From assembly GCA_013239625.1 (NCBI GenBank), contig MU053884.1:124001-188000 (forward strand): a stretch of 64,000 bases of DNA, written 5' to 3'. Made by a program: the position numbers and the translations under genes. The notes under the pieces are model-generated. The model saw only the letters and a list, made by a program, of their open reading frames with translations. It searched no databases and was not told the origin of the DNA. This DNA is from Lama guanicoe (Eukaryota). This document shows, one piece after another, positions 1 through 64,000 of this stretch; position 1 is the first letter of the stretch; each line of letters begins with the position of its first letter.

Positions 1-3000
1 TTTTGTTTTGTTTTCAGGAGGCCTGAGTTGCGGATGGGAAAAGAGTTGAGGGTGGGCTGAGGAAAAAAGTGACACTCCCTCTCCTCCCAGCTGAAACTGA
101 TGAACAATGAAATCAATTAGCTGTATCGGTATTTGACTAATAGAAGTCAGACAGCCCGAAATGTTATGCCCAATGGAATGTACTGAATTCACCTGCAGAA
201 TTAGGTACTTTACCAAGTAGAAGCAGCTTAGAGCAATCAGAAAAATCAGTCCTTTGATGAGATATAAAAAGAATATAATAACTTTTATTTCTGAAAATTT
301 TCTACGTTAAGTTGGGTAGAGCTAAAATTAATTTTCAAGCACCAGGAGTCAAGAGTGTGGGTGGTTCTGTAGGATCGTTATTCAGGGATGTTTCTAGACC
401 CTGCTGGAGTGGCTGAAGCTGGCAGGAAAAGACCCAGAGCCAGGATTTGTCATTCTAGGGTGTCCTCCTTAATGGTTCAATGTGGGAGCCCATGATTGGG
501 TTAACAAATTGTAACAGACCCCAGAAGCCTGTCAACATTAAGAAGAAAAAAATGTGCTTAGTAACTGCTTTCAAGCAAACACCTGTGCATCCTCACTTCT
601 GTCTCCTTGCCATAAAAAGCAGAGACAATGACTTGCTTGCATAGTTCAGGTTTTAGATTGCACTCTGCTCATTGCACAGCAATGACACAGGCCCTCAAAT
701 ATAAAAGCTGAGCGTGCATGCTGTTAGATAGTCTATTATCCCCCAATCAAGGACCTGGCTGGTCTGGTGGTCTGCTTTGTAATCAACATATCTAAAGAGT
801 GTATCTTGTTCCCCTCTCCCCATGACTTCCCTAAAGGTAAACAAAGCCTTTATACTCTTTGTGGATTCTACACTCTCTGTCTGATCCTGTCTTTCCCTAA
901 GTTCCTGTTTACTATCACACACCTGTGAATGACTATTTCCTTTGATTATACACAATAAATATGGGAGCATTTGAGAGGCTCGTGGAGTTGGCTCCCTACT
1001 CCCTCTAGATTTCTTAACTTTTTCCACAGTCTTGAGTAATGCATTCCGTGTCGGTAAGACTTCTGCCAGCCAGAACCCACAGTTCCAGGTGAGAAGGATG
1101 GAGGCTTTATCTCTCCTACCCAAGGGAGAGAGAGAAGAGAATTAAGATCTGCTCCCCGGTGGTCCCTTCCAGCCCCAGGGACACTCGAGTTAACCTGCAG
1201 CCTTCTGGCCTCTGCTCACAGGGCCTCTGTACCAGGGCTGACCGTAGCCATTTCTTCCCTTGTCAACATTTCCTGTGCCTCTCAGAAGTTGGTCTCTTCT
1301 CTGCAGTTCAACCCTGGCAGATGTGAAGGTGGTCTGTGTGCTGGTGGGTAGTCACTTGGGGACTGCCAGGAGCCATGCTGATTCTCCTGAGTCTCTCACT
1401 CGGGGTTACAGAACTGTCGAGCAATGGAGGAAGCCCATTCAGGTGAGGTCAACATAGAATTACATCACTTTCATTTTATTTTTGAATTTTCAGTGGAGAA
1501 ATTATTTGTAGCAAACTGTTCCAGATTTTCAGCCGCCTGCTTTCCTTACCACCATTTCCTTGTTGGCTCTGGTCTTGTTTTAAGAACCAAGTTTCTTCTC
1601 TGGTCATTTGTAGCAGCTGGGCTTGCCGAATCCTTGACCTGCATTTGAAGCAGAATGCTTCTTCATGATGTCTAACTGATTTTTCTTGTCATGTCTGAAT
1701 ATTTCATGTACACTCAGCAACTGTTTCAAGTGAAATGCTCTTGTCCAATTTCGGTTCACTCACATTTGCTGATCTGCTGCTCTCATGCTGTTGGCAATTT
1801 CTTCTTCCTGTAATAAAAGCAAGCAATTTGCATTTACTATGGGAAGGTACTGGCCCGAGGTGCTTTTGTTATTAACAGTTTTATTACAATTCACCCATTA
1901 TGGTGTACAGCGGATTTTACTCTATGCCCAGGATTGTGCATCCCAATCAATCTTTGAACATTTTCATCCCTCCAGCAGGAAGCCCCGTATGCATAAGCTG
2001 TCATTCCCATCTTCCCCATCCTCCCCCACCCCCAGGGAGCCACTCTTCTGTCTCTGTGCATTTTCCTGTACTGGGCATTTCATGTAAATCAAGTCACTTC
2101 ATGTAAGTGGAACCGTCTATTGTGACTGACTTCTTTCACACTTAGTAATGTTTTCAATATTTGTCCACGTTCTGGCCTGGGTCAGTACTCTATGCTTTGC
2201 TATTGCTGAATAATATTCCACTGCATGGCTGGGCCCCTCTGTTTACCCATTCATCACGTGATAGACATTTGGATTTTTTCTGCTTTTTGGCTGTGATGAG
2301 TAATGGCTCCGTGAATATTCCTGTAGCAGTTTTTATGTGAACATTTGTTTTCAATTCTCTTACGTGTGTGCCCAGGAAGCAAAATTGCTGGGTCATTCAG
2401 AAACCAAATGTTCAACTCTCTGAGGACCAGCTAGGCTGTTTTCCAAAGTGGCCACGCTATGTTACAGCCTCACCAGCAAGGGCTGCTGTTTCTGCTTCCT
2501 CTGTGTCCTCATTAGTGCTTGTTATTATTTTTTCTATTATAACCTATTGTAGTGAGTCTGAAGAGGTTTCTCCTAGTGGTTTTGACTTGATTACCATTAC
2601 AGCTAGTGATATTGAACACTGTTTCATTGTGCTTATTAGCCATTTGTATATTTTCCTTGAAAAATATCTTTTCAGATCAGTTATTCATCTTTTAATTAAG
2701 TTGCTTTTTTATTGTTGATTTGTAGGATTGTTTTGCTTGTTTTTTATCTGTTTTGTTTTGTTTCTTTTTTTTTTTTGGAATTTTGGAGATACAAATTCCT
2801 TATCAGATAAATGATTTGAAAAAATTTTCTCCTTTGTGTTGGTTTTTCACTTTCTGGATGATGTCCTTTGAAGCAAAGATTTAAATTTTGATGAACTCCA
2901 ATTTATCTCTGTTTTCTTTTTTCCTTGTGCTTTTGGGGTAATATTTAATATGTGAGGTATTTTATTTAAGCTTTTATATATAACATAACTAAATTATTAG

Positions 3001-6000
3001 GACCGTTCTAGGAGATGGGTGCTGTTGTTTTCCCCAGTCTATGGAAAGGAGAATGAGATGCAGAAAATTTCACTGACTTAGTGTCAAAGCTACCCAGTGC
3101 TGTGGGAATTCAGACCCTCATGATTTCCCTAGCATCTGTGCTCTTCACCACCATGCTCCACTCCTTCCTGGAATCGTTAATGAAAGTCTTTCCTTTTCTG
3201 ATTTGTTGTTAGTTATTTTCTCATTGCGGACTTCATCTCCTCATTTTCTTTACAGAGAGCTCAGTATAGGTTTATTTTAGGTCTCATGTAGGCAGAAGCA
3301 TTGCTGTCAGTTAACTTTTTTATTACTCAATCTCCAGTGATGATTGCTGCTAGTTGACCTAACCAAGTCATGCTTAACTCTTTCCTGCTCATGACAGTAA
3401 AAACAGTCATGACTTACAGAATGCTCAAAAAAGAAAGTACTTGATTGATTTTATTTTGCTAACCAATCAAACCAATCAAATAAAAACCCTGGAGTTGATA
3501 CAGACTATAAGCCCTCCAGAATAGGGTCACTGTCTTCCTTGTGTTTCATTTGTTTGGTCACAGTGTCTGGTTAGTGCCTTGCTGTCCTGCAGTTTTGTTA
3601 GGATACGGTGCTCGTGAATCATTGTAAGGACAGAATTTTGACAACACTCTGTGTTGTTCATTTCATGAGGGAAAAGATAATATAGAAATACTGCTTAGAA
3701 CTATTTTAAAACTAAGCTTGGAATTTTAAGAAAAGTTCAAGAAACCATACAAAGATCTTTTTCACTAATTTTAGATCTATCTGAGACACATTATGTTACA
3801 TAGCAGACTAATTTATCAACCTGATTTGACAAGAGGAGTATATTATTAATCATTTGTTTTAGTTGAAATATTCTACCTGGGATAATGTAATCAGTGCCCA
3901 TAAATGAAAAAAATGTTTGTATTTCTATGCAGTATGGGAGCAGACTTCATATGTTTCTATATAATATATATGACTGTGTTTTAATCTGTCTGTCAGTGTT
4001 TTTAAAGTTTTTCAGCAATGTTGTAACTTTATAATTCTTCTAAGAAATTCACCCCTGTGTCTAGTGCAGTTTGTACTGTGTATCCTATCTTATGCATGGG
4101 ATTCAACTCTCCTCTCAGTGAGGAATTTCCTCTCCTACTGAGTTAGTAGCACAGTTAAAGTAACTGTGATTTCTAGGCTTTTGCTCTCCATGTGTTTGCA
4201 GTTGGCTGTCAATTACAATTTTCCCTTTCTTGAGTTTTCATTGTTCAATTAGAATTTTTGTAAATAACTATTAATATGTTGCATCAGTATCCCTAGAAAC
4301 TTAATGTGTTTGTGCTTTTCAGTTTTCAATTTAGGAAAAATGTAAATGCACCCTTGTTTTAAGTAGTCCTTTTTCACTAGATTCTTGTTTACCTCTTTAT
4401 AGTTAAAATAATTTCTTCCCAATTAATGAATCAGTGTGCATGTTTAAAAGATACTTTACTTTTTATTTTTCTTATTGTAACAGTTATATTCATTGTAGAG
4501 AATTTAGAAAATAAGGATAAATACAGTAATAACTTCACAATGGCCTCTAATCTCAACTGGAGGTACAGTTGTAAGGCTTGAAATTGAGAGTTACAAGTCC
4601 TCTCACGATGTTCTTCTTTTTCAAGTACGTTTTGGTTACTAAGACCCTCGAATTCCCTTATGAATTGTAGCAGCAGCTAGTCATTTACTGCAGAGCAGCC
4701 CGCTGGGATTGTGATCGAGACCACGTTGAAGATACGGATCACTCTGGGGAGCACTGGTATTCCAAGAGCACTGTCTTCTGATCCATGAATGTGTGTGGTG
4801 TGTCTGTCCAGGTATTTAGGTCTTTTTAAGTTTTTTTTTCAACAATGCTTTGAGATTACAGAGTATTATTTTACTTAATTTATTTTTTATATTTTTGCCT
4901 TTAAACTGAGGACAAGTGTGCAAGGTACCGGGATCAGAATTACATTTGAGCCCCGCCACTTGCTGCCACCATGGTCGCTGCACTCTTGCTTCACCCGCTG
5001 TACAATCTTGCACAGTATAGGGCCTCAGTAACTCTCTCTTCAATGAATGATTATATGATTGTTGGATGATGCTTGAGATTCCTTGTGATAAATTTTTTTT
5101 TCCATCTTTCCCCAATTCTTAATTATGTCCTTTCTCTTCCTTACCTCCATCCTTGGTTTCAGCCTACCTGTGGCATTGATTTTTCTTGTCTGCAGACACT
5201 TCCTTTCATTGGTTCACCATAATGTTACATGTGGGTTGTGGAAACTTGCTAGATATCAAGAAAGAGCAAATTCATTGCATGCTAGTATTTTTAGAGTGTG
5301 TTATTCTTTTATTGATTGAAATTAAATCAGGCTGACCCCCTGAGCCCTCCTGTGAGCTCTTTTCGCCTTCCTACAGGTGGTACTGCTCTGATTGCTGCAT
5401 GTGGCCATACCCCAGTCTTGGTTTTGGAGTTAAGTCACCGTCAGTGGAGCCCTCTCGTTAAAAAATGAAGAGAACATTTGCTCCTACTCCTTGGTTTGGG
5501 ACTTGGATGACATGAAGTACAAGATAAAGAATGGAGCCCCACCTCATTCTGACCCCTGCTCTTTCCGTTCATTTTTCCAGGGGAAAAGAGTACAATTCAA
5601 CAGTATAAAGATTGATTGTGAGCTAATGAGATAGACAAGACAATTGATTATTTATTAAATATCCTTTCATGCCAGAAACAAATATACACACAAAAAGCAC
5701 ACAAAACACAGTAGTACCGTGGTTACTAACGTGGGTCCGAGTTCGAGTCCTGCTCAGGAGTGACCAGTCCTGTGAGATGGAGAATTGGTAGGTCGGCTTA
5801 GCCTCTCCCAGACTTGTTTTCTGTCCTGCAGAGACAGGGCTCGCTTGGCGTCCCCCCCGTAGAGGTGCTGTGGGGTGTAATTGACGCGCGTGGGCAGCCC
5901 GAGCACAGCTGCTCGTTCCTCGTAAGTGCAGGATAGCATAGCTTTAGCGGTGATGGCTTTATGACCGCCCCGTGTAGACTCTCAGTGCTCCAAAGGGATG

Positions 6001-6593
6001 CCTTGTGGTTTGGAGATGGGATTCTCACTTCTGTAAATTCCCAAGGATTGTGTTATTGCACCCTGCTGATTTGAAACTATTCTTTAGAATGTACATATTG
6101 TAGATATATTTTTCAACCATGCGTGCTTTTTTCTTTTATTTATAGTTCCACCATCTCATCACTTTATGAGACTTTTCATGGAATCCATGAAACAGTCCTA
6201 AGCTACCTGCCTCTTCACACTTCTCCGTGGTGGTTTTCTTCCCTGACTGGAAGAGGGTTTTGCATAGGAAATTTTCTTTGTTCCCCTTTTCTTGGAGTCT
6301 CACTGTCTCTCTGCCCATCTCTCACCTGTCCATCTGTCCATGTATTTACCCACTCATTCTTCTGACTTGTTCTATGAACCATTTGAGGCAGCTTACAGAA
6401 GAACAGATACCAAACAAACAGGTGAGAAAATCGGGCCAATTTCAGACAGTGAGGCTAGGAGGTGAGCCTGTGTGAGGGTTGCTGGCATGAGACACACGCC
6501 TCGCCCTGTGACTTATAAGATCGACAGCAAGAGTGTGCCTGTGGCTCCCAGCAGACACAGGGAAACAGGGTTTGTGGGAGATGCTCACTGGCT
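1..6593 (+). repeat. Segmental duplication, copy A (direct repeat of 57426-64000)
   Basis: Colinear match over 6.6 kb, e.g. ttttcaggaggcctgagttgc at 11 and 57436, and gtgggagatgctcactg at ~6575 and ~63982. Many substitutions and small indels, about 85-92% identity by eye. Confidence 0.97.
1865..2960 (-). mobile_element. Old L1 (L1MB-like) 3' fragment; paralogous copy at ~59295-60340
   Basis: Typical antisense L1M 3' UTR and ORF2-end text (gctgaataatattccactg, gccatttgtatattttccttgaaaaatatc, tccttatcagataaatgatttg). Boundaries approximate. Confidence 0.8.
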
Positions 6594-7293
6594 GTGAAAT
6601 AAATAAGTGGCTTAGGAGAAGCCCAGCCTTTCCAGCTACTAAGGCTTAGGAGAATATTTTAAGTGTCTTCCAAAATCAGAGTATTTCATCTTTTCTTTTG
6701 TCACAGTTCTACGTATAGTTGGTTACATTGTATACCTGGAAATTTCTCCAAAAACTGCTTCCGAGTCCCATGGCTCGGGAATGGGGTGGTTCTGCTCATT
6801 GATGGGTGTTAGCCCGAAACAGAAAATGACAGCCTCAAAGGAGCCTGGGATTTGACAGTTGTGCTTTGTCAGTACTGTAGAGTTCAAAAAATCCTTTCAC
6901 AGTTTCTCTCCATCTGAGGTGGCAGTGTGCTCTCTTACCAGCATCAGGAGCTCAGGGCCACGGGATGGTGGGTTCTGACTGCACTGCCGTCAAGACAGCT
7001 AGCTAGTCACTGCAGGTGTGGTGCTTTTACATAGGGAATTCCATGTTCTTAAGAAGAATGTTTCAACATGTAGTTAATTAACTGAGTTAATTAACATTTA
7101 GTAAATATGATGCTTTGTTGAAAAGACAGTTATAGGCAGAATATAAACTGTGAAGACTTTAAAAACTATTTCATTACTGAAATTTCAGTGGGGAAGATAC
7201 ATAGTTTATCTTATTTTTCCTCTCTTTTAAAGTAACAAAGAAACAAGACAGAAAAGGCAGAGGATGATTTCTGTTCTTCCTCTCGGCTTGCAG

Positions 7294-7422
7294 GTGCCCT
7301 CACCTCCAGTAGCATCAATCCAGACACCAGCACTGACACTGGCCATGTGTCAGTGCTCAGAACTGCCTCAGCCCTGAAGACACAACTGATAAATAGAAGG
7401 GGGCCACACCCTGTTACAGCAG
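7294..7422 (+). pseudogene. TRAPPC9: TRAPPC9-derived exon (approx. human exon 6), disabled
   Basis: Polypyrimidine tract plus cag acceptor; ag|gt donor. Translates ALTSSSINPDTSTDTGH/NCLSPEDTTDK*KGATPCYS versus recalled TRAPPC9 [40 protein letters not shown]. Has an 8-nt insertion frameshift and TAG at 7394-7396. Confidence 0.92.
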
Positions 7423-8549
7423 GTGCTCTCACTTTGTGGGTCCTTATGTAACTGCACGGCGTTATTCAGGATCGCCCTTTATACATTGTGTGACGCTGCT
7501 GCCGTGTCTCCTAGTTACTTGTTTCTGTAAGTATTCATGTATTATTCTCCATTGCGTGGTACTACACACCTAAAAATGATTTTTACAGATGTAAAATAAT
7601 GTGCATTTAATATAATAAGTTTGAAAAAAGGGGCAAAAGAGGCTATACTTGTCCCGCTTCTCAGAGATAATAATTAACACGTTAACATCTTTTTTCTGTT
7701 CTTTTCGTCATTGTGTATCACCTCTGTTATAAAAAACCAGTGAGCACTCTGTGCCTCTTTACTGTGTGGAGACCTCCATGTTCCATTCGGCTTATTACAT
7801 GTTTTCCTACAATATTCTATCTCCCCTGGCATGATTTTTACTGACCAGTATAGCATTTTGTCTTGTGGAGGCAACTTCCATTTTCCTTCGGACTTAAATA
7901 AACTTTTAAATTCCAAGTATACTTAACTGAAATACTGAAAAGAGAACTGTGGTGGTACAGGATGGCCCCTACCTCCCTTACCTTTATTTCCTGATAGTAA
8001 AAGTTGTTGAAAATTTGGTATATATATTTCATGATCTTTATGCCTATGACATACATATATATACACATGTGAGAAATCTATGTATACGTATGTGTATATA
8101 TGCTTTATTTAAAAGTGAGACCATACTATATGTTTTCTGCCGCTTGCTTTATTCACTTGGGTATATCATAGACGTCCTTCCACTCCAAACTCACCCAGTC
8201 CTTTCAGATAGAGTGGAGTGTTCTCCCAATGTGTGGGAGTGGTCTCTTGTCCATGGATACCTTTCGTGGGACAGTGCTGTGGACAAGGCCCTGGAACATG
8301 GCGAAACGCCGGCTCCCTCAGAGTCCGCAGCTCGCCGTGATTTACCGCATCATTGTCTTGATGGTGGACACTTAAGATTTCTCCATTTTCCACTGTCAGA
8401 AAAGATGTTTGACTGGCATCCTTCTTCTACAGACATTCCTGTGATCTTGTATGAGTATTCCTTTAGTTATGGCTTCTGGAAATTTAGTCCCTGGATGTGA
8501 CATTTACATTCATTACAGACTCCTTTCAAGTGACTCTAGAAATTCCTTC

Positions 8550-12702: not shown

Positions 12703-13240
12703 TGATACCGAGTTAAAACTCATTCTGCTCGCCGCATGACAGGCCAATAAACGATGAGATGAGGTGTTGGAGCAAGGAATAGTGAGTTTATTTGCAAAGC
12801 TGGCAGACCCAGAAAATGGCAGACTGATGTCCTGGAGAACCATCTTCCCCAAGTCAGAATTCAGTCTCCTTTTATACTAAAAAGGGGCAGGGGTGTGGTT
12901 GATTGTTGCAAACTTCTTGCTGTATGAATTGTTTGTCCTTTGAATCTGCTGTTCTTGCAGCTGTCCATGTGGATCAAATCATTGTGCCCCTGTAAAACCT
13001 CCAGGAAAACAAAGGTTATTCTCAATATTGCAACTTGCCATCTCTACATAAGTGCAGATGAGCTAACATCCTTAAAGATCAGAGCTTGGAGAATAGGCTC
13101 TCATGTAGATTTCAGGCTAAAGGCAACTTTCTTTTACAAATGGTGCAGATCTAGCAAGACTGAGACTAGAAAACAGGGCACAGGGTTAAAGCCAAAGGAA
13201 AAGATCTAACATGGGGTCAAAATTGTTCTTTTCTATTACA
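12703..13240 (-). mobile_element. Solo ERV1-class LTR (same family as 33318-33800)
   Basis: TG...CA ends (tgatacc...ttaca), near-perfect 4-bp TSD attt/attc, minus-strand TATA (ttttatac) and AATAAA (tttatt). Reverse complement aligns to 33318-33800. Confidence 0.85.
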
Positions 13241-14399: not shown

Positions 14400-14523
14400 T
14401 GTAAGAATGATGGTAACTGAGTTAGAAGTATGCTTCCAACAAGCCCGTTTCCTCACCATCCAGAAGCGGGGCCTGGAAGTTTCCGAATTTCTTCAGAATG
14501 CGGTCTACATTCACCTTTGGCAG
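14400..14523 (+). pseudogene. TRAPPC9: TRAPPC9-derived exon (approx. human exon 7), frameshifted
   Basis: ttttctccctgcag acceptor and cag|gtgagt donor. [41 protein letters not shown] versus recalled [42 protein letters not shown]. Length 124 nt, 2 nt short of frame. Confidence 0.95.
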
Positions 14524-20597: not shown

Positions 20598-21111
20598 TGT
20601 TACGGAAATGACAGGCCAGCCAAGAAACAAGCACCACTCGGAGGGTTGCAGTACTCATATTTATTATGCCGGCGGGCTCAGAGGGGCTTCTGCTCAGAAG
20701 CTCTGAGCATCTCCAAGACGTGCACATGAGGTTTTATAGGGTTAATTACAAGTATGGGGCTATTAGCCAATGAGGTTCAAACAACAAAAAGCAAGGAATC
20801 AGTACACTGGAGCTTATCAATTTGGAACAGATTACGTTACTGACACTTGTTGAGCTTGGATTTATGAGTTAGCTTGTTAGCCCAGTAAACTGACACTAAA
20901 CTTTAGATTTACAATTTAGCCCGGCAGAACTTATATCAGTAAACCGACACTTATCACACTTAGATTTGTGACTGAGCTCGTTAGCCCAATAGACTGACAC
21001 TAAACTTCAGATTTATGAGTTAGCCCAGCAGAACTCAGATCAGTAATCCGACACTTGTTGCACTTAGATTTGTGACTTAGCTTGTTAGCCCAGCTGGGCT
21101 TTTCCTTCACA
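20598..21111 (-). mobile_element. 3' LTR of provirus
   Basis: tgttacgg...cttcaca. Adjacent to the antisense PPT. Minus-strand TATAAAA (ttttata) and intact AATAAA (tttatt). Two tandem ~104-bp U3 units. Confidence 0.97.
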
Positions 21112-21595
21112 TTCCCCCCTCTTGATGCTTTCACAACCCTTGTTGGAGTAAGCATCATCATTCACCTGTTGCAGAGGCTCATATTTGGAGGCTAAATTCT
21201 GAAGTTTTATAGCCTCTATCCGCTCACTGACAAAGCAGGTCAGGAAGTTTAGGACACAGGGCCCAAACAGCAGAACTGCAAAAATCAGGATTAAGGGACC
21301 TATGAACGGTGCCAGCCAGGAGGTCCAGCCCCAGGGGCCTGTCCATGGACTCTTATCTAAAATATGTTTTCTCTTTTCTACTCGGTCTTGTAACTCTTGA
21401 ACCATCCCTCTGACAATTCCTGATTGATTGGCATAAAACAACACTCTTCATTTAGGAAGAGGCATAGTCCCCCCTCTTTGGCCATGAGTAAGTCCAGACC
21501 CCTCCTGTTTTGTAAGACCACCTCGGCGAGAGAGTCAATCTGATTTTGCAGAGTTTTCAGGGTTTTTGCTATTTGTTGGAGATCGTGGCTGAATT
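21085..21595 (-). pseudogene. env: env TM remnant (SU deleted)
   Basis: [52 protein letters not shown] (immunosuppressive domain and CX6CC), a frameshift, then FYANQSGIV and the transmembrane helix LAPFIGPLILIFAVLLFGPCVL. Confidence 0.93.
21112..21124 (-). other. Polypurine tract
   Basis: ttcccccctcttg reads caagaggggggaa on the minus strand, immediately before the 3' LTR. Confidence 0.9.
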
Positions 21596-21623
21596 TACAT
21601 TTAACAGCTGCTTTGAGCTTTCC

Positions 21624-24105
21624 TCAAGCTTCGGCCCGTTCGTTGACTAGCCAGCTTCCAGGTGTGGCTAGAGCAGGGCTCGTCGATCTTTTTTGGTCCC
21701 TCTTGATCTTGATCTTGAGTGGGCTTCCAGGGACACTCTCAATTTTCCAGGGACCCTCCATCTGAGGTGCAGTTGCTCTCTTGATCCTGGAGTGGTGGAC
21801 CCAAGGAATGATTTTTGCAACTTTAACAGCTGTAGGAGTAGTTAATACCTCTAAATATGGTCCCTTTTATGTTGGTTTGAGAGGTTTTTTTTTCAATCCT
21901 TTACCCATACCTGGTCACCTGGTTTATGGGGATGTACTTGAACCCCTAATGAAATGGTTTTTTTTCTATTACCCAAACCCAAACTTTTTGTAGTACTTTT
22001 TCTAGTCCCAACATTTGTTGGTGGAGCCCTAAATTTTTTATTTTTGGGGTGGGGTTTCTCATTCTGACTAAAGGTGGCGGTCACCCATAGAAGATTTCAA
22101 AGGGAGAGTACCCAATATTAAATTTTGGGGTGCATCTAATTCGTAACAGAGCCAGGGGTTGAATATCCACCCAGGGGAGCTGGGTTTCTTGGCTGATTTT
22201 AGCTATAATTTGTTTTAGAGTTCTGTTTATTTGTTTTAGTTTCACTGAGCTTTGAGGCCGCTATGCTGTGTGCAGGTTCCAGCTGATGATGCTCAGTGTC
22301 TTTACCACTTGCTGTACAATTTCTGACACAAAGGCGGGTCCATTGTCAGACCTGATGGAGGTAGGCATTCCAAATCGAGGGATAACACCCCTGAGAAGAG
22401 CCTTTGTCACTTTCCTTGCTTTCTCTGTCCTGGTGGGCTAGGCCTTTACCCACCCTATGAAGGTGCAGACGAAAACCAGCAGGTACTTATATTCCTTACT
22501 GGGCCCAACTTTAGTAAAGTCCACTTCTAAATGTTTAAAGGGAGACAATCCACATCATTGTATTCCCATTGACCCAGTGAGCCCTTGTTTTGGATTGTTT
22601 TGTGCACAGAGCAAGCAGCGTTGGGAAACTGATGCACATAGAGTAGGGAGATGAGAAATTAGGAAATACCGCTTTAAGAGGGCCTCCAAAGCTGTTTTTC
22701 CCATATGTGTGGCTTCGTGCTGTTCTTGGACTAAACGATAAGCTAGACGTTCTGGGTTGAAAACCCTTTCATCTGTCATGATTTACCATCCGTCCTTTCT
22801 TTTTTCTCCTCGTTCAGCCTGTGCCCACTTGTTTTTGTCGTGACTATATTCTGGGGCAGTGGGTAGCTCTGGCGCTGCCATAACTTTAATTACTGAGTAT
22901 TTCCAGGCGGCTGCTTCTCTTGCCTTTTGATCAGCTAGCCTGTTCCCCTGGCTCACAGGGTCATTTTCTCTTTGATGTCTCTTACAGTGAATAACGGCCA
23001 CTTCCTTTGGATCCCATACTGCCTCCAGTAACTGTAAAATTTTTTCTTTGTTTTTGATTTCTTTTTCCCCAGCGGTCAAAAGTCCTCTCTCCTTATAGAT
23101 GGCTCCATGTACATACAAGTTTGCAAATGCATATTTGGAATCAGTGTATATATTGACTCATTTTCCTTTCCCTTCCCTTAGTGCCTGGACCAGTGCCCAG
23201 ATCTCTGCTCACTGAGCAGATCATCCTGGGGGAAGGGACTCTGTCTTTATTACCTCTTGGGTTGTTGTTACAGCATAACCTGCTCACCATTGTCCATCCT
23301 GTATGTAACTGCTGCCGTCTGTGAAAAGTTCCAGGTCTGGGTTTTGCAGGAGCTTGTCGGTTAGATCAGGTCTGCTTGCATACAACTCTTCAATGATTTC
23401 TTCGCAGTTGTGGTCAGGCTGTCCTTCCCCCTCAGGCAAATATGTGGCTGGGTTTAAGGTTCGCACAGTCTCTAGACGGACTCTTGGATTTTCACATAGA
23501 AGCCCCTGGTAGTGGGTCATCCTTGTGTTAGTTATCCATTTGTAACCTGGGCCGTTCATCAGGGACACCACAGAATGCGGCACTTTTAAATATAAAGTCT
23601 GTCCCAGTGTGAGTTTGTCTGCCTCATTGACCAGGAGGGCTGTGGCAGCGAGGGCCCGTAAACAGGGTGGCCAACCTGATGCTACAGGGTCCAGTCTTTT
23701 AGATAAATAGGCCACAGGGCGCTGCCATGGCCCCACATTCTGAGTTAGGACTCCAAGAGCAGTTTGGTCTCTTTTATGTACAAACAGATTAAACTCTTGT
23801 GTTACATCTGGTAAGCCTAGTGCTGGGGGTTGGGTTAGTAGTTTTTTTAATTGCCTAAAGGCATTTTCTTGTTTTGTTTTCCCATTTGAGGGTTTCTTTT
23901 CCTGATCCAGCAGTTGCTTCATAGAGGGTCTTGGCTGTTTTTGAAAACCCGGGGATCCAGATCCGGCAAAATCCAGCTGCGCCCAGGAACTCTCGCAGTT
24001 TTCTTTTTGTTTCCGGTCTGGGTATGGTGCAAATAACTTGTTTTCGTTCTGGTCCTAGGGCTCGGTGCCCCTCTGAGATAATAAATCCCAAGTGTTTGAC
24101 TGTCT
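21624..24105 (-). pseudogene. pol: pol remnant: RT thumb/connection, RNase H, integrase
   Basis: LREFLGAAGFCRIWIPGF, RPVAYLSKRLDPVASGWPPCLRALAA, LFTDGSS, VHGAIYKERGLL, HEATH...C..C zinc finger, GYSPFEIFYG and GPY module. Several stops and frameshifts. Confidence 0.95.
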
Positions 24106-24454
24106 TTTTGGCCTGGACCGGCTGAGCTGCTAATATCTTGCATTGTTCATGTCCATTTGAGCAAAACCAAATCCATGGGGGTAGAGTCTGGGCGATATTT
24201 AGCAAGGAGTCAATGTAAGGGAATTGATCTGGGTGGCCTGGGGTTCCAGTGATTATTTGATAGACTGTTCACACTGTTGCTAGGTCCAGAGTTTCTCCTG
24301 AGGGCCACCCGACTCCAAAGGCCGGCCATTTAAGCTCACATAAAGTGCGGAGCCTGCCAGAGGTCATTCGAATTTTACAGTTTCCTGAGAACCCTTTTTT
24401 GAAATTTTTGATCATGTAGTCTAGAGTGGTGGGTTTTGACTTAGAGCCTCCCTT
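24106..24454 (-). pseudogene. gag: gag matrix (MA) remnant
   Basis: GGSKSKPTTLDYMIKNFKKGF...LCELKWPAFGVGWPSGETLDL...GHPDQFPYID, gamma-type MA motifs. Initiator position reads AAG and there is one internal TGA. Confidence 0.9.
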
Positions 24455-25719: not shown

Positions 25720-25737
25720 ATCTCGCTGGGGCCTCCA
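25720..25737 (-). other. Primer-binding site, tRNA-Thr
   Basis: Minus strand TGGAGGCCCCAGCGAGAT, 4 nt after the 5' LTR. Complementary to the recalled mammalian tRNA-Thr(UGU) 3' end ATCTCGCTGGGGCCTCCA. Confidence 0.88.
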
Positions 25738-25741
25738 GAAA

Positions 25742-26446: not shown

Positions 26447-26536
26447 NNNNNNNNNNNNNNNNNNNNNNNNNNNNNNNNNNNNNNNNNNNNNNNNNNNNNN
26501 NNNNNNNNNNNNNNNNNNNNNNNNNNNNNNNNNNNN
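26447..26536. other. Assembly gap (90 N)
   Basis: Run of n. Confidence 1.
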
Positions 26537-29370: not shown

Positions 29371-29563
29371 NNNNNNNNNNNNNNNNNNNNNNNNNNNNNN
29401 NNNNNNNNNNNNNNNNNNNNNNNNNNNNNNNNNNNNNNNNNNNNNNNNNNNNNNNNNNNNNNNNNNNNNNNNNNNNNNNNNNNNNNNNNNNNNNNNNNNN
29501 NNNNNNNNNNNNNNNNNNNNNNNNNNNNNNNNNNNNNNNNNNNNNNNNNNNNNNNNNNNNNNN
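29371..29563. other. Assembly gap (193 N)
   Basis: Run of n. Confidence 1.
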
Positions 29564-32863: not shown

Positions 32864-32888
32864 AATAATACTACTAATGATAATAATG

Positions 32889-39159: not shown

Positions 39160-39283
39160 TTTTGAGGAGGATAATTAGGTTCATTTACTTGTTTCATTTT
39201 TTAAAATGAGGTACTGGGGATTGAACCCAGGGCCTTGTACATGTTAAGCACGTGCTCTACCACTGAACTGTCCCATCCTCCCC
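39160..39283 (-). mobile_element. tRNA-derived SINE (camelid Vic-1-like)
   Basis: Minus strand ...agttcagtggtagagcacgtgcttaacatgtacaaggccctgggttcaatccccagtacctc with Pol III A and B boxes, followed by an A-rich tail. Confidence 0.85.
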
Positions 39284-39715: not shown

Positions 39716-40285
39716 GGCCTGCAACATGAGAATCCCTGACTATGTGCAGTGTGCTGAGTACTACGAGACTCTACCCGTGGTGGTCCAACCCGTGGGGATC
39801 ATTTCAGGATAATTTCTTTTGCATCTATAATCGAAACTCCTTGGTGAGCCAGATCAGCCCGTGCGGCTCCCTGTGGGCACTCTGTATCCACTACAGGCAC
39901 CACTATGTGCCCGAGAATGGGTGGAGTGACTTTCAGACCCACCGCAAGGTCGTGGGCCTTGTCACCATTACCGACTGCCTCTAGGCCAAGGCCTTCGAGA
40001 AGCTTCACGTGCAGAGGAGCTCTATGGCACCACGCTTAATGACTCTCAGCTCTTTGACTTTGTGCTGCATGGGGAGGTAGCCGAGCACCCGTGCACTGAT
40101 GTGACCTTCAGTCTACGAGGACTGCAGGGTGGTGGAGAAGAGGATCGAGGACTTCACTGAGTCACTCTTCATCTTGTTCAAGTCCATGTGGCTGGATGGG
40201 GCCCCCGAAAGTCTGGGGACAAGATCCCCCTCCTCTGCGTCCTGTTTGAGAAGGAGGACTTCATGGGACTGGATACAGACAGCAG
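39716..40285 (+). pseudogene. TRAPPC9: TRAPPC9-derived first coding exon (approx. human exon 2), unprocessed and disabled
   Basis: cag acceptor, 10-nt UTR, ATG at 39726. [26 protein letters not shown] / NFFCIY...[29 protein letters not shown] / [15 protein letters not shown] / [24 protein letters not shown], ending ag|gtaagt. Matches the recalled TRAPPC9 N-terminus. At least four frameshifts and a TAG at 39982. Confidence 0.97.
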
Positions 40286-40520
40286 GTAAGTCTGCCTGGA
40301 GGCCCGTCCGCCCTGGCTGTGTGCCAGGTTTCTTCCCTACATCCAGAAAGGGATCAGCAAGGAAGAGGGCAGTCTTGTAGCCAAGGAGGTAGGGAGGTGC
40401 AGCCCGCCTGTTTACAGACATTTAAAAGTGAATCCGCCTTTGTTTCAGAGAGATCCTTTTAGGGTTAGTGTGGACAGTTACTCCTGCTTTTCAGCCAGAA
40501 CACCTGGTGGGACCCCTTGA

Positions 40521-43466: not shown

Positions 43467-43611
43467 ATGGGGACCGTAGCTTCCCCTCTGCTTCAGCCAG
43501 TAGGCTTTCAGAGCCGTGTCTGTGGTTTGCCTCAGCAGCCGTGCAGGCCTCCCTGCACTGCCCTTTAGTTTTAACCCAAGTTGGCAGTAAATAAAAAAAA
43601 GTGTCTGTTGC
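43467..43611 (+). repeat. 145-bp direct repeat, copy 1
   Basis: atggggaccgtagc...gtgtctgttgc, 3 mismatches versus 45958-46102. Confidence 0.97.
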
Positions 43612-45957: not shown

Positions 45958-46102
45958 ATGGGGACCGTAGCTTCCCCTCTGCTTCAGCCACTAGGCTTTC
46001 AGAGCCGTGTCTGTGGTTTGCCTCAGCAGCCGTGCAGACCTCCCTGCACTGGCCTTTAGTTTTAACCCAAGTTGGCAGTAAATAAAAAAAAGTGTCTGTT
46101 GC
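45958..46102 (+). repeat. 145-bp direct repeat, copy 2
   Basis: Matches 43467-43611 with 3 mismatches. Confidence 0.97.
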
Positions 46103-49480: not shown

Positions 49481-50554
49481 CCTGGGAGTGCCTGTTGTTT
49501 GGGCGGCTTTATTCTGTTCTCACCCTGCAATGTGAAGAGTCATCTTGTGCTGAGGCCATTCTACTCGTGTGAGTGGTGAGACTCAGAGAGTTTTTAGTCA
49601 TGTTTCTATTTTCCCCCTTGCTATGTGTAGGGAAAAAAGGCTTAAGCCTGAGAAAGTGCTCCATCTGCAGAAATGTCTTTCAGTTTTGCATGGTGTAAAA
49701 CTCTTGAGAGCTTTTTAATCGTTGAGGACAGCCTGTAGAGGGAAACAGCCCATGAAGCCTGGGTGAGACCTGGAAGAGCTGCGCTTCCCTCCCTGACACA
49801 GGTGGGGATTTCACCCCCGTTCAGGCAGTGAAGGGCCCAGACCCATTAGTGGAGTTGACAATCTTGAATATTTATTGTATCCGCACTTCATCTTGGATAT
49901 TAATTTCAAGCTGAGTCAATTTGTGGCGGTAGCCTCATCCTACATCAGGAATTTATATTATCTGCTCTTTGAGGTGAAGACCAGATAGACTTGATTATTT
50001 AACAGTCTCCCTTGAATTGATATCTCAGATTCCTTTGTCAATAGCAAAACAGCAGAAATACAGACGGCCTTTAATGCCGATGTGACCTGGAACGGGTTTA
50101 GTCTCTGTGACTCAGTGGCCTTATCTGTGGTTGGGGAAGATGATAACAGTACTTCCCTCAGAAGGGCTGGTGAGGGGGAAGTGAGAAGCACAAATGGAGG
50201 ACTTACACGAGATGCTCATGAATGACCGTATTTAGTGCTCTCAGCCTGGTGAGGCCTCAGGGGCAGAGATGTCAGGACAGAGCAGTCCTAGCCGGAGCTC
50301 GATCCGTGTTGGCAGCTGTTATGATCACTGTCACCACTATGGGTAATCTGGTAGTTTTAAGACTTGGTAATATTAATTCATGAGTAATGTTAAAAGAGTA
50401 GCTATCTCACATCCAGTTTACATTGTTCTCAAGATTTCCTCTGAGAAATGGATGTTTTATTCTCCATCTTAAATCTGAATTGAGACTCTAAAAAAATTCT
50501 GTATTCTTCCATCTTTTTGCTTTAATTCTTCATTTCTTAAAAAGAAAAGTTTTT

Positions 50555-50635
50555 AAATAGAGTTACTGTGGACGGAACTGAGGGCCGCATGCATGCTAAG
50601 CACATACTCTCCCAAATGAGGTAGAATCTCCCCAT
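50555..50635 (-). mobile_element. Degenerate Vic-1-like SINE
   Basis: gcatgctaagcacatactctccc core, related to the 39.2-kb copy. Confidence 0.55.
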
Positions 50636-55669: not shown

Positions 55670-55765
55670 ATTTTTATTTATTTTTTTTGGAGGTACTGGA
55701 GACTGAAGGCAGGACATTGTGCATGCTAAGCAGGTGGTCTACAACTGAGTAATACCCACCCTCCT
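55670..55765 (-). mobile_element. Vic-1-like SINE
   Basis: tttttggaggtactggagactgaa...gcatgctaagcaggtggtctacaactgagtaataccc. Confidence 0.75.
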
Positions 55766-56620: not shown

Positions 56621-56647
56621 CGGTAAAGGAAATTCTCATTGATCTAT
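56621..56647 (+). pseudogene. TRAPPC9: TRAPPC9-derived 27-nt microexon (approx. human exon 5)
   Basis: gtttttctttcag|cggtaaaggaaattctcattgatctat|gt, 27 nt, phase 1-1. (A)VKEILIDL versus recalled GAQEVLIDP, and in the right order before the next unit's exon 6. Confidence 0.78.
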
Positions 56648-57425: not shown

Positions 57426-60400
57426 CTTTGTTTTGTTTTCAGGAGGCCTGAGTTGCTGATGAGAAAAGAGTTGAGGGTGGGCTGAGGAACAGAGTGACAC
57501 TTCCTCTCCTAACGGCTGAAATTAATGAACAATGAAATCAATTAAGTGTATCGGTATTTGACCAATAGAAGTTAGAGGGCCCAAACTGGCTAGTTATGCC
57601 TAATGGAAAGTAGTGAATTCACCTGCAGAATTAGGTGCTTTACCAAGTAGAAGCAGCTTACAGCATTCAGAAAAAAATCATTCCTATATGAGATATAAAA
57701 GAATATAATATCTTTTATTTCTGAAACTTTTCAACGTTAAGTTGTGTAGAGCTAAATTTAATTTTCAAGCACCAGGAGTAAAGAGTGTGGGTGGTTCTGT
57801 GGGATCGTTATTCAGGGAGGTGTCTAGATGCTGCTAGAGTGGCTGAAGCTGGCAGAAAAAGGCCCAGAGCCAGGATTTGTCATCCCAGGTTGTTCTTCAT
57901 AATGGTTCCATGTGGGAGCACATGATTGGGTTAACAAATTCTAACAGACCCCAGCTGCCTGTCAACTTTATAAAGAAAACATATGCTCAGTATCTGCTTT
58001 GCAAGCAGGCGCCTGTGCATCCTCACTCCTGTCTCCTTAACTTAAAAAGCAGAGAAAATGCTTTGCTTGCATAGTTGAGGTTTTAGATAGCACTCTGCTC
58101 ATTGCAAAGCAATGACCCAGGCCCTCAGCTATAAACAATGGGCGTGCATGCTGTTAGATATTCTATTATCCCCAAAATAAGGAACTGGCTGGTCTGGTTG
58201 TCTGCTTTGTAATTCACATGTCTGAAGAATGTATCTTGTTCCCCTCACCCCATGACATCCCTAAAGATAGACTAAGCCTTTATACTCATTGTGGATTCTA
58301 CAATCCCAGTATCATCCAGACTTTCCTCAAGTTCCTACTTATTATCACACAACTGTGAGTGACTTTTTCCTTTGATGATACACAATAAATATGGGAGCAT
58401 TTGAGAGGCTTGTGGAGTTGGCTCCCTACTCCCTCTAGATTACTTAACTTTTTCCACAGTGTCTTGAGTAATTCATTCCGTGTCGGTAAGACTTCTGCCA
58501 GCCAGAACTCACAGTTCCAGGTGAGGAGGATGCAGGCTTTATCTCTCCTACCCGAGGGAGAGAGAGAAGAGAATTGAGATTTGCTCCCCCGTGATCCCTT
58601 CCTGCCCCAGGGCCATTCCAGTTCACTTGCAAACTTCTGGCCTCTGCTCACAGGGCCTCTATCCCAGGACTGACCACAGCCTTTTATTCCATGGTCAACA
58701 TTTCCTGTGCCTTTCAGAAGTTGGTCTCTTCTCTGCAGTTCAACCCTGGCAGATGTGATGGTGGTCAGCGTGCTGTTGGGCAGTCACTTGGGGACTGCCA
58801 GGAGCCATGCTGATTCCCCTGAGTCCCTCACTCAGGGTTATAGAACTGTCGAGCAACGGAGGAAGCCCATTCACGTGAGGTCAGCACAGCATTGCATCAC
58901 TTTCATTTTATTTTTGAATTTTCAGTGGAGAGATTACTTGTAGCAAACTGTTCCAGATTTTCAGCCACCTGCTTTCCTCACCACCATCCCATTGTTGGCT
59001 CTGGTCCTTGTTTTAAGAACCAGGTTTCTTCTCTGGTCATTTCTAGCAGCTGGGCTTCCCGAATCCTTGATCTGCATTTGAAGCAGAATGCTTCTTCATA
59101 TGTCAAACTGATTTTCCTATTTCTGAATATTTCATGTACACTCAGCAACTGTTTCAAGTGAAATGCTCGTGTCCAATTTCGGTTAACTCACATTTGCTGA
59201 TCTGCTGCTTTCATGCTGAGGGCAGTCTCTTCTTCCTGTAATAAAAGTTAGCAATTTGCATTTCCTATGGGAAGGTATTGGCCCAAGGTGCTTGTGTTCT
59301 TAACAATTTTAATACAATTCACCCATTAAAATGTACAGCGGTTTTTACTCTATACCCAGAATTGTGCACCCCAATCAATCTTAGAACATTTTCATCCCCT
59401 CAACAGGAAACCCCATATGCATAAGCAGTCATTCCGAACTTCCCCATCCTCCCCCAGCCCCAAGGAGAAAGTCTTCTCTCTCTGTGGATTTGCCTGTGCT
59501 GGACATTTCATGTAAATTCAGTCATTTCATGTAAATGGAACTGTCTATTGTGACTGACTTCTTTCACACTGAGTAACGTTTTCATTGTTTGTCCACGTTG
59601 TGGCCTGCGTCAGTAATCTCTGCTTTGCTATTGCTGAATAATATTCCACTGTATGGCTGGGCTCCACTGTTTACCCATTCATCAGATGATAGGCATTTTG
59701 GTTGTTTCTGCTTTTTGCATGTGTTGAGTAGTGGCGGCGTGAAAATTCCTGTAGGAGTTTTTATGTGGACTTTTTTTTCAGTACTCTTACGTGTGTGCCC
59801 AGACAGAAAAATTGCTGGGTCATTCAGAAACCAAATTTTCAACTTTCTGAGGACCTGCTAGGCTGTTTTCCAAAGTGGCCACTCTGTGTTACATCCTCAC
59901 CAGCAAGGGCTGTTGTTTCCACTTCTGTGTCCTCATTAGTGCTTGTTACAATTTTTTTGATTATAACCTGTTGTAGTGAGTGTGAATTGGTTTCTCCTAG
60001 TGATTTTGACATGATTTCAATTACAGCTAATGATCTTGAACATCGTTTCATTGTGCTTATTGGCCATTTGTATATTTTCCTTGAAAAACTCCTTTTCAGA
60101 TCCTTTATTCAATTTTTAATTGAGTTGTATTTTATTGTTAAGTTGTAGGATTTCTTTTTTTTCTTTTGGAGATACAAATTCCTTATCAGATAAATGATTT
60201 GAAAAAATTTTCTTCTGTGTGTTGTTTTTTCACTTTCTGGATGGTGTCCATTGAAGCAAAGATTTAAATTTTGGTGAACTCCAATTTATCTCTGTTTTCT
60301 TTGTTCCTAGTGCTTTTGGGGTAATATTTAATATCTGAGGTATTTTACTTAAACTTTTATATATAAGAAACAAAATTCTTAGGACCGTTCTAGAAGACGG

Positions 60401-63400
60401 GTGCTGTTGTTGTCCCCAGTCTATGGATAGGAGACTGAGATGCAGAAAATTTCACTGACATATCGGTTTCCCAGCTACCCAGTGCTGTGGGAGTTCAGCC
60501 CTTCATGTTTGTACCCAGCATCTGTGTTCTTCACCACCATGCTCCACTCCTTCCTGGAATCGTTAATGAAAAACTCTTTCCTTTTTTGATTTCTTGTTAG
60601 TTTGTTTTCTCATTGGGGACCTCATCTCCTCATTTTCCTTGCAAAGATCAATGTAGTTTTATTTTAGGTCTCATGTAGGCAGAAGCATTGCTATCAGTTA
60701 ACTTCTTTATTACTCACTCTCCAGTGATGATTGTTGCTAGTTGACTTAATCAAGTCATGCTTAACTCTTTCCTGCTCATGACACTAAAAACAGAGTCATG
60801 ACTTACAGAATGCTCAAAAAAGAAAGCACTTGATTGATTTTATTTTGCTAACCAATCAAACCAATCAAATAAAAACCCCGGTGTTGACACAGACTATAAA
60901 CCCTCCAGAATAGGGTCACTGTCTTCCTTGTGTTTCATTTGACTTCCTTGTGTTTGTTTGGTCACAGTGTCTGGATAGTGCCTTGCTGCCCAGCAGTTTT
61001 GTTAGGATACGGTGCTCGTGAATCATTGTAAGGACAGAATTTTGACAACAGACTGTGTTGTTCATTTCACGAGGGAAAAGATATTATAGAAATACTGCTC
61101 AGATTTATTTTAAAACTAAGCTTGGAATTTTGAGAAAAGTTCAAGGAACCATGCAAAGATTTTTTCACTAATTTTAGATCTATCTTAGACGCATTATGGT
61201 TACAGAGCAGACTAATTTATCAACTAGATTTGACAAGAGGAGTGTATTACTGACTATTTGTTTCAGTTGAAATATTCTACCTGGGATAAAGTAATCAGTG
61301 CACATAAATGGACAAATATATTTGTATTTCTATGCAATATGGGAGCAGACTCCATATGTTAGTATATAATATATATGATTGTCTGTTTTAATCTGTCAGT
61401 GTTTTTATAGTTTTTCAGCCATGACTTAAATTTATAATTCTTCTAAGAAATCACCCCCAATTCTAGTGCAGTTTGTACTGTGTATCCTGTCTTATGCATT
61501 GGATTCCACGGTCCCCTCAGTGAGGAATTTCCTCTCCTACTGAGTTAGTAACAGAGATAAATGAACTGTGATTTCTAGGCCTTTGCTCTACATGTGTTGG
61601 CAGTTGGCGGTCAATCACGATTTTCCCTTCCTTGAGTTTTCATTTTTCAATTAGAATTTTTGAAAATAACTATTAATATGTTGCAACGGTCTCCCTAGAA
61701 ACTTGATGTGTTTGTGCTTTTCAGTTTTAAATTTATGAAAAATGTAAATTCGCTTTTGTTTTTAAGTAGCCCTTTTTCGCTAGATATTTGTTTACCTCTT
61801 TGTAGTTAAAATATTTTTTTCCCAATGAATGAATCAGTGTGCATGTTTTAAATGATATCTTACTTTTTATTTCTCTTATTTTAACAGTAATATTCATTGC
61901 AGAGAATTTAGGAAATAAAGATAAACACAATAATAAGTTAAAAATGGCCTCTAATCTCAACTGGAGATATAGTTGTAAGGTTTGAAATTGAGAATTACAA
62001 GTCCTCTCAAGTTGTTCTTCTTTTTCAAGTACGTTTTGGTTACTGAGACACTCGAATTCCCATATGAATTGTAGCAGCATCTAGTCAGTTTCTGCAGAGG
62101 AGCCCACTGGGATTGTGATCGAGACCACATTGAACATACAGATAGCTCTGGGGATCATTTGCATTCCAAGAGCACTGTCTTCTGATCCAGGAATGTGCGT
62201 GGTGTGTCTGTCCAGGTATTTAGGTCTTCTTTAATTTTTTTTTCAACAATGCTTTGAGTCTACAGAGTAGTATTTTACTTTATATATCTTTTTTTTGCCT
62301 TTATACTGAGGACAAGTGTGCAAGGTACCTGTATCAGAAGTATATTTGAGCCCCACCTCTTGCTGCCACCATGGTCGCTGCACTCTTGTTTCGCCCACTG
62401 TACAATCTTGCACAGTATAGACCTCAGTAACTCTCTCTTCAATGAATGATTATATGATTGTTGGATGATGCTTGAGAGTCCTTGTGATGATTTTTTTCCC
62501 ATCCTTTCCCCAATTCTTAACTATGCCCTTTCTCTTCCTTTCCTCCAGTCTTGGTTTCAGCCTACCTGTGGCATTGATTTTTCTTGTCTGTAGACACTTC
62601 CTTTCAGTGGTTCATGATAATGTTACATGTGGGTTGTGGAAACTTGCTAGATGTCAAGAAAGAGCAAATCGATTGCATGCTAGTATTTTTAGAGTATGTT
62701 ATTCGTTTATCAATTGAAATTAAATCAGGCTTACACCCTGAGCCATCCTGTGAGCCCTTTTCACCTTCCTACAGGTGATACTGCTCTGATTGCTGCATAT
62801 GCACTTTCCCAGCCTTGGTTTTGGAGTTGAGTATGTCACCATCAGTGGAGCCCTCTCGTTAAAAGATGAAGAGAACATTTGCTCCTTCACTCTGTTTGGG
62901 GACTTGGATGAGGTGAGGTACCAGATAAAGAATGGAGCCCCAACTCATTCTGACCCCAGCTTTTTCCATTCTTTCTCCAGGGTAAAAGAGTACAATACAA
63001 CAATATAAAGATTGATTGTGAGCTAATGAGATAGACAAGACAACCGATCATTTATTAAATATCCTTTCATGCCAGAAACAAATGTATTATACACACAAAA
63101 AGCACATAAAGCATGGTAGTACTATGGTTACAATTGTGGGCCCGAGTTCGAGTCCTGCTCTGGAGTGACCAGTCCTGTGAGATAGAGAACTGGTAGGTCG
63201 GCTTAGCCTCTCCTGGACTTGTTTGCTGTCCTGCAGAGCTTGCTTGCTTGCGTCCCCCTCGTAGAGATGCTGTGGGGTGTAAATAATGCGCGTGAGCAGC
63301 CTGAGCACAGCTGCTCGTTCCTCGTAAGTGCAGGATAGCATAGCTTTTGCAGTGACAGCTTTATGACCGCCCAATGTAGATTCTCTGTGCTCCAAAGGGA

Positions 63401-64000
63401 TGCCTTGTGGTTTGGAGATGGGATTCTCACTTCTGTAAATACCCAAGGATTGTGTCATTGCACCCTGCTGATTTGAATCTATTCTTTTGAAAGTACATAT
63501 TGTAGATATATTTTTCAAGCATGCATGCATCTTTTTACTTTATTATTGATACTTGTACACTCTCATGTCTTGGTGTGACTTTTCATGGAATCCAGGAAAC
63601 AGTCCTAAGCTACCTGCCTCTTCACACTTCTCCGTGGTGGTTTTCTTCGCTGACTAGAAGAGGGTTTTGCATAGAAAATTTTCTTTGTTCCCCTTTTTTG
63701 GAGTCTCCCTGTCTGTCTGCCCATCTCTTACCTGTCCATCTGTCCATTTATCTACCCACTCATTCTTCTGACTTGTTCTATGAAGCATTTCAGGCAGCTT
63801 TCAGAAGAACAGATACCAAATAAACAGGTGATTAAATGGAGCCAAGTTTAGACAGTGAGGCTAGGAGGCAAGCCTGTGTGAGGGTTGCAGGCGTGAGACA
63901 CACGTGTCTGCCCTGTGACTTATAAATTCGACAGCAAGTGTATGCTTGAGGTTCCTAGCAGACACAGGGAAACAGGATTTGTGGGAGATGCTCACTGACT
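57426..64000 (+). repeat. Segmental duplication, copy B (direct repeat of 1-6593; runs off the window)
   Basis: Colinear with 1-6593, offset 57425 at the start and 57407 at the end. Confidence 0.97.

Follow-up and report, generated by a model that had tools for sequence, protein, structure and literature searches.

Human pericentromeric regions contain partial gene copies, such as fragments of NF1 and ABCD1, that keep their introns and occur on several chromosomes, usually as a handful of copies with >90% identity and no long tandem runs. The closest long-range array of a gene fragment is the Sp100-rs/Sp110 cluster (HSR/HEX) on mouse chromosome 1. According to the available text of its description (PMC13042054), the cluster consists of about 50 to >800 copies of large tandem segmental units that include the 5' part of a gene, and it occupies one locus with a chimeric gene, active SP100/SP110 and demonstrated transmission bias. 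For camelids, the accessible part of PMC13751797 describes pseudogene-rich blocks in alpaca (NEK10-, ATF5-, FMN2- and ABHD17A-like), interpreted there as neutral duplication followed by decay; the blocks are dispersed, lie on one or two chromosomes and are missing from camel assemblies. TRAPPC9 is mentioned neither in the main text of that paper nor in the one supplement covered.

Here we describe a camelid repeat derived from TRAPPC9 (NIBP), a TRAPPII subunit (PF08626 and related models) that is the source of the unit's promoter, its exons 2, 5, 6 and 7, and its introns. The aligned pieces have 52-65% amino acid identity with TRAPPC9; unlike the parent, the repeat family has lost exons 3-4 and everything after exon 7, carries frameshifts and stops, and is multicopy and unconstrained. 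Like the NF1 and ABCD1 fragments, the repeat is intron-bearing and present on more than one chromosome; unlike them, it appears in long tandem runs. It resembles the alpaca blocks as a multicopy gene fragment in repeat-rich camelid domains, but is apparently tandem, spread over many chromosomes and common to Camelus. It appears to share large tandem units, and shares the 5' part of a gene, with the Sp100-rs cluster, but lies on many chromosomes and has no intact product.

The window, that is, the whole 64,000-nucleotide stretch of guanaco DNA analyzed, contains the following features (exon numbering is that of the human TRAPPC9 gene):

2-6593, forward strand: intron-5 DNA of the left unit, paralogous to 57427-64000 (88.6% identity, K2P 0.106, 41 indels)
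7294-7422, forward strand: TRAPPC9 exon 6 relic with a frameshift and a stop, AG/GT ends retained
14400-14523, forward strand: TRAPPC9 exon 7 relic, the last parent exon detected (64% amino acid identity to pig TRAPPC9)
20598-26255, reverse strand: internally deleted, broken endogenous retrovirus with RT/RNase H and env remnants
26447-26536, no strand: assembly gap of 90 N on the path from exon 7 to the promoter
29371-29563, no strand: assembly gap of 193 N amid antisense L1-like fragments (L1 label assigned by eye)
33838-34247, reverse strand: solo LTR of the same family as the provirus (91.7% identity to the proviral LTR)
34750-35640, forward strand: right unit's promoter, with an eroded CpG island, and exon-1 region
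39207-39277, reverse strand: tRNA-like sequence (Rfam RF00005, 32.6 bits), no tRNA gene call
39716-40285, forward strand: TRAPPC9 exon 2 relic with the family's one-codon and four-codon deletions and more frameshifts
56621-56647, forward strand: microexon 5 relic of 27 nt with AG/GT ends
57427-64000, forward strand: intron-5 part of the right unit, from self-BLAST
63557-63673, forward strand: intron-5 stretch that alpaca models P0024, P0026 and P0027 use as a cryptic exon 5' of exon 6 (90-95% amino acid identity)

Self-BLAST of the window aligns its two ends on the same strand over 6,649 columns (E=0), with an offset of 57,425 at the start of the alignment and 57,407 at its end, in agreement with the offset of about 57.4 kb given in the initial annotation. 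The overlap is chiefly non-repeat intron DNA; two L1 copies were ruled out as the source of the end repeat, as L1-like DNA makes up only about 0.9 of its 6.6 kb. The full alignment contains 645 substitutions at 6,522 sites. Neighboring units have thus not been homogenized, and with 9.9% substitutions and 41 indels between the copies, the pair is not an assembly haplotype duplicate, as had been proposed from the sequence. The TRAPPC9 exons between the two ends are decayed and follow the order 6, 7, CpG island, 2, microexon 5, the circular permutation noted before. A unit therefore comprises promoter, exon 1, exon 2, microexon 5, exon 6 and exon 7 and measures about 52 kb (51.8 kb) without the provirus, which adds 5.7 kb here; the right unit's exon 6 is predicted about 700 bp beyond the window end (about 64,700). 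The window probably spans about 1.1 units of a long-range repeat that derives from a gene and occurs throughout the camelids.

The parent exons were located by tblastn and HMM tiling with mammalian TRAPPC9 queries, which locate residues 1-195, 296-336 and 342-378 at 39726-40286, 7293-7423 and 14413-14523, respectively. Mapping with pig, horse and bear TRAPPC9 gives exons 2, 6 and 7 with intact splice sites (39716-40285, 7294-7422 and 14400-14523, respectively). For microexon 5, just one of the 15 best matches, 56621-56647, combines AG/GT ends with a pyrimidine tract; its match score of 20 is not significant by itself. Splice sites are intact on all four internal exons, a weak hint of retained splicing. 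The CpG island (about 34750-35500) has a GC content of 0.70 and a CpG observed/expected ratio of 0.54, compared with 0.28 for the whole window, and intact GT donors follow 34983 and 35640, close to where camelid models exit toward exon 2.

HMM tiling with 49 orthologues gave no scoring block for parent residues 211-285 and 391-1147 in the window, nor in any of 90 camelid gene models. The earlier observation that nothing of the parent lies past exon 7 thus extends to the family, and because no block covers residues 211-285, exons 3 and 4 are missing too, a point that the initial annotation does not make; exons 3, 4, and 8 onward are absent from the unit. No intact host coding sequence was found in the unit among eight open reading frames run against Pfam, and neither a PDB search nor a Pfam search with the four exon pieces yielded anything. 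The fragment keeps introns and a promoter and carries frameshifts, stops and missing exons, as expected of an unprocessed pseudogene; the introns rule out a processed one, and the first reading of the locus as an unprocessed TRAPPC9 5' fragment stands. The 120 orthologue records listed of 700 include no camelid full-length TRAPPC9.

Whether the two ends of the window belong to adjacent units is a separate matter. Between exon 7 and the next promoter lie both gaps (26447-26536 and 29371-29563) and a 5,658-bp provirus whose flanks show no matching target-site duplication, so the window by itself does not prove that the units are adjacent. The join might be a scaffolding artefact that brought the tail of one copy together with the head of another locus, the family itself being real. 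The two gaps separating exon 7 from the promoter would fit this, as would the mismatched proviral flanks (the solo LTR at 33838-34247 has its 4-bp target-site duplication intact) and the end of the contig about 190 bp beyond the proviral LTR. We nevertheless regard an artefact as decidedly unlikely: the order exon 6 or 7, promoter exon, exon 2 recurs in gene models from other assemblies, on 13 scaffolds. The 514-bp proviral LTRs are 98.8% identical, which at 2.2e-9 substitutions per site per year (from a rate in the available text of PMC7305198) gives an age of about 2.7 Myr; the provirus is too young to be the founding junction and may instead be the trace of recent recombination or of a join made in assembly. 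The first bases of the solo LTR are also found in alpaca model P0200.

The head-to-tail arrangement can be followed outside the guanaco by way of annotated gene models. A search with the exon-2 peptide returned 30 matches, all camelid, in line with the lineage-specific origin suggested earlier; the set was enlarged by cluster look-ups and a profile search. Scaffold length serves as a proxy for chromosome, and the counts are lower bounds, based on the longest scaffold per record and on copies with an annotated open frame. Alpaca has 51 models on 21 scaffold lengths, 15 of them >20 Mb; two further alpaca lengths were added, and models occur on 17 alpaca scaffolds >20 Mb overall. There are 24 Bactrian models on seven scaffolds over 20 Mb, and dromedary has five models on one 613-kb scaffold and five on a 1.47-Mb scaffold; family models are present in C. 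bactrianus, C. dromedarius and C. ferus. The 46 distinct exon-2 peptides among 78 scorable models show that copies are many and set a lower bound on their number, and one identical exon-2 peptide is shared by 15 alpaca models across six scaffolds.

Many of these models step backward through the unit order. An automatic rule, by which exon 6, 7 or 2 is followed by exon 2 or the promoter exon, finds such back-steps in 27 of the 90 models (25 of them alpaca) on 13 scaffolds; the rule overlooks others (for instance Bactrian P0009), and in P0028 one of the steps is spurious, an artefact of alignment. Gene models are predictions but run collinear with their assembly, so that those stepping backward imply tandem units at those places, and the existence of head-to-tail units in other camelid assemblies is supported. 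The amplification proposed in the initial annotation is accordingly retained, with many copies and head-to-tail units elsewhere, but not as a single array, since the models are spread over many scaffolds.

Shared changes in exon 2 record the history of the family. The one-codon deletion is present in all 84 scorable models of the first set and all 19 of the second, and in none of the 120 orthologue records; the four-codon deletion is present in 75 of 75 and 12 of 14, respectively (rows unscorable for the one- and four-codon deletions number 6 and 15 of 90 in the first set and 12 and 17 of 31 in the second). An older sister subfamily (P0240, P0242 and P0248) lacks the full four-codon deletion and has nine stem changes in common with the main family; the 613-kb scaffold carries two of its members alongside main-family copies. 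A tree built over 103 columns from the window, 46 distinct peptides and four outgroups, with no camelid parent included, fails in all 200 bootstrap replicates to recover either genus as monophyletic, and a clade with good support (97/91) mixes both. Because the genera intermix, the radiation is older than the Camelus-Vicugna split, placed at >11 Myr in the accessible part of PMC13751797. An alpaca-only clade of 14 rows (100/99) has near-identical members, which, together with the peptide shared across six scaffolds, indicates that turnover goes on.

By a rough clock, the window pair is 24 Myr old from all substitutions and 17-18 Myr old from transitions alone. The claim that about 10% divergence reflects an old expansion is therefore half right: the expansion is old, as the mixing of genera and the 17-24 Myr range indicate, but the divergence does not follow a normal clock, because half of the changes are transversions.

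The native ATG of exon 2 at 39726 opens a frame that ends after 28 codons in the window copy, but in many models of both genera this frame stays open for about 104 codons. Some units could thus encode a selected, truncated TRAPPC9 N-terminal protein of 104-130 residues, and the array would be an expanding coding family, for which the recent spread of the near-identical alpaca clade might also speak. Gene models are ascertained for open frames, however, and conservation in the parent has no bearing on where the copies vary: there are 1.54 variants per column at 71 orthologue-invariant columns and 1.19 at 31 variable ones (p=0.28), and 15 of the 71 invariant columns are already altered in the family majority. 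Since variants are no rarer at invariant columns, the part of exon 2 tested retains no TRAPPC9 constraint; the loss was found over codons 1-104, in protein records. A coding family is accordingly very improbable, and the unit probably has no TRAPPC9 protein function.

The changes among copies are unusual in kind. Away from gaps, 289 of the differences between the repeat pair in the window are transitions and 292 are transversions (Ts/Tv 0.99, CI 0.84-1.17), and 103 are A:T<>T:A changes. For comparison, the available text of PMC10172114 gives human ratios of 2.06 for unique DNA and 1.78 for segmental duplications, and that of PMC7305198 gives 2.54 for camel genome-wide filtered SNPs; SNP ratios are not a strict equivalent of divergence between paralogs. 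The difference of the repeat pair from 1.78 is significant (p=2e-12). The ratio is 0.94 outside CpG, 1.01 at >20 bp from indels and 1.09 for isolated substitutions, and it is alike in L1-like, LTR-like and remaining parts; adjacent substitution pairs number 76, against 55 +/- 7 expected. Alignment error can be ruled out from the isolated and indel-distant values and from the agreement of two aligners, and an error in the guanaco assembly is unlikely, as protein records of other assemblies agree. In those records, single-step amino acid variants among paralogs, normalized for opportunity, give a family Ts/Tv of 1.10 (95% interval 0.76-1.54), with 1.17-1.19 on wider segments and 1.08 for held-out variants seen in the second set only (p=0.03 against 2.06). 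A T>A excess in the first set (19 of 165 chances) was not seen again in the held-out variants (1 of 144). The orthologue control gives 2.34, with a wide interval (1.0-6.0).

The stem leading from the parent to the family majority differs from the subsequent radiation, with 17 transitions to 1 transversion in the former and 59 to 75 in the latter (p=6e-5). A wider count, in which the radiation excludes variants equal to the parent state, gives 27:2 and 64:87. The sister subfamily (12:10, Ts/Tv 1.57) does not differ from the radiation (p=0.37). The share of transitions on the stem exceeds what normal decay predicts, so CpG decay may have inflated the contrast. The low Ts/Tv of the repeat copies is itself solid, and its timing and cause are suggestive; the contrast suggests a satellite-type mutation regime following amplification, the reference values being those of human DNA, camel SNPs and the orthologue records.

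Reduced transition bias is shared with human segmental duplications, acrocentric short arms, where the available text of PMC12724521 describes a tenfold rate and fewer CpG transitions, and active alpha satellite, with a Ts/Tv of 0.55 in the accessible part of a 2026 preprint (PMC13684623). The TRAPPC9 repeat, at about 1.0-1.2, is intermediate between human duplications (1.78) and alpha satellite. Unlike those compartments, it is a formerly single-copy gene sequence; its values are based on paralogs and millions of years, and its spectrum leans toward C>A and A:T<>T:A changes, not toward C>G.

We propose the following course of events. A segmental duplication would have copied TRAPPC9 from its promoter to intron 7 in the camelid ancestor, and the copy would then have acquired a frameshift and the one-codon deletion and lost exons 3-4, the four-codon deletion coming later. 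The order of the gene models and the mixing of genera support a second step, in which the unit, broken by then, multiplied head to tail and reached many chromosomes before Camelus and Vicugna split; subfamilies appear still to move from one chromosome to another. Unequal crossover is a probable means, as is ectopic exchange of the kind known from segmental duplications and from DNA flanking satellites. After amplification, the copies appear to have diverged at the measured Ts/Tv near 1, in the manner of satellite-type, probably late-replicating or recombination-prone DNA. Because the unit keeps its promoter and splice sites and has lost the gene end, RNA would be expected to run on, with exon 6, 7 or 2 spliced to the next unit's exon 2. 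Back-stepping gene models fit such run-on splicing; a circular RNA of one unit would have the same junctions. The run-on RNAs are most likely by-products.

These transcripts, or germline small RNAs, might instead be what the array is for, tuning TRAPPC9 or local chromatin. This view, raised in the initial annotation but so far not supported, could draw on the retained promoter island and splice sites and on predicted gene models, both the wrap-around ones and the many multi-isoform RefSeq ones (one Bactrian cluster has 14 entries on a single scaffold). Yet exons and introns show no sign of constraint, no young long inverted repeat was found in the window (the best is a 70% pair), and the only Rfam family there is the tRNA-like repeat. 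Pairing between array RNA and TRAPPC9 would be limited, because the copies differ from the parent at about a quarter of exon-2 residues; we consider an RNA role unlikely. LTR-driven sense transcription was ruled out, as both LTR elements are oriented opposite to the TRAPPC9 strand. The tRNA-like sequence at 39207-39277 is probably the head of a tRNA-derived SINE, and related copies occur at 50550 and 55690.

A selfish cluster of the Sp100-rs/HEX type would be a reading by analogy only, the 5' part of a gene being amplified in long units in both, with the recent spread of one alpaca subfamily as a further point of likeness. No intact protein or second gene was found in the unit, however, and the family is spread over many chromosomes instead of occupying a single locus, so that we hold this reading to be extremely improbable. 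A live, promoter-bearing macrosatellite, heterochromatic on many chromosomes, might also impose the transversion-rich regime while its transcripts feed needed or transmission-biasing small-RNA or chromatin signals; this, too, seems distinctly improbable. What the locus represents is, in our judgment, probably a camelid-wide long-range repeat of a gene fragment, likely with no function of its own.

RefSeq and GenBank annotate the copies individually as ‘TRAPPC9-like’, and a table in the accessible part of PMC10568864 lists the family with 0, 4 and 8 copies in three camel annotations; no peptide for the family is reported in that part. Our literature searches, with subscription journals mostly outside their scope, found no paper describing a TRAPPC9 array, the available text of a bioRxiv CNV paper (10.1101/2025.08.28.672513) contains nothing on one, and none of 93 candidates in a metagenome scan was a related locus. 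The suggestion that the system is undescribed thus holds for the papers searched but not for the annotations or that table. The low Ts/Tv of the copies and the contrast between stem and radiation appear to be new here.

For camelid genomics, the repeat is an annotation trap, with dozens of ‘TRAPPC9-like’ models swelling gene counts. In dromedary, TRAPPC9 has been put forward by two association studies as the candidate gene for chr14:31.1-31.4 Mb, in one of them along with POFUT2, and these signals probably fall in a pseudogene block. A plain clock is unsuitable for dating divergence in such arrays. According to the available text of the 2026 preprint (PMC13684623), the cause of the low transition bias of alpha satellite is unclear and other repeat families are wanted. 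Its ancestral state being known, its lineages being many and replicated, and a before/after contrast being at hand, the TRAPPC9 repeat would serve as a reporter of mutation spectrum, one that separates the effects of position from those of sequence on transition bias in repeat compartments.

Repeats of several kinds occur in the window, including a retrovirus and a solo long terminal repeat (LTR) of its family:

20598-26255, minus strand: gamma-like provirus, internally deleted, LTRs 98.8% identical
33838-34247, minus strand: solo LTR belonging to the provirus family, located ~500 bp upstream from the CpG island
12703-13239 and 33319-33800: inverted pair formed by an older repeat, LTR-like by eye, 70% identical
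43467-43611 and 45958-46102: 145-bp direct duplication in intron 2, copies 98% identical, 2.5 kb between them
39207-39277, 50550-50614 and 55690-55748: three related tRNA-like short repeats

As the near-identity of its LTRs indicates, the provirus is young. These LTRs contain 104-bp tandem units, and the primer-binding site resembles tRNA-Thr. Comparison of the two flanks gave no matching target-site duplication, so that the element may represent either recombination between two insertions or a join made in assembly. The solo LTR is apparently shared with an alpaca copy on a 96-Mb scaffold, to judge from only 5-6 residues of P0200, a predicted TRAPPC9-like gene model. Cryptic exons of this and three other such alpaca models (P0022, P0028 and P0266) are drawn from both repeats of the inverted pair. 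The tRNA-like repeats are probably a camelid tRNA-derived SINE.

Between parent TRAPPC9 and the family majority, T>C changes number 17 vs 10 C>T in exons 2 and 6 together (small numbers); one possible cause of this lean from A:T to G:C, in the few changes counted, is GC-biased gene conversion that preceded the radiation of the family copies. Three exon-2 copies (P0240, P0242 and P0248), which lack the full four-codon deletion typical of the main family, form an older sister subfamily, and two of its members lie alongside main-family copies on a 613-kb dromedary scaffold.

TRAPPC9 and POFUT2 are unlinked in human. Tables from two dromedary association studies name TRAPPC9 at chr14:31.1-31.4 Mb, and one of the studies names POFUT2 together with it (PMC10357240, Table 2; PMC8027435, table). 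Given the human arrangement, these hits probably fall within a pseudogene block.
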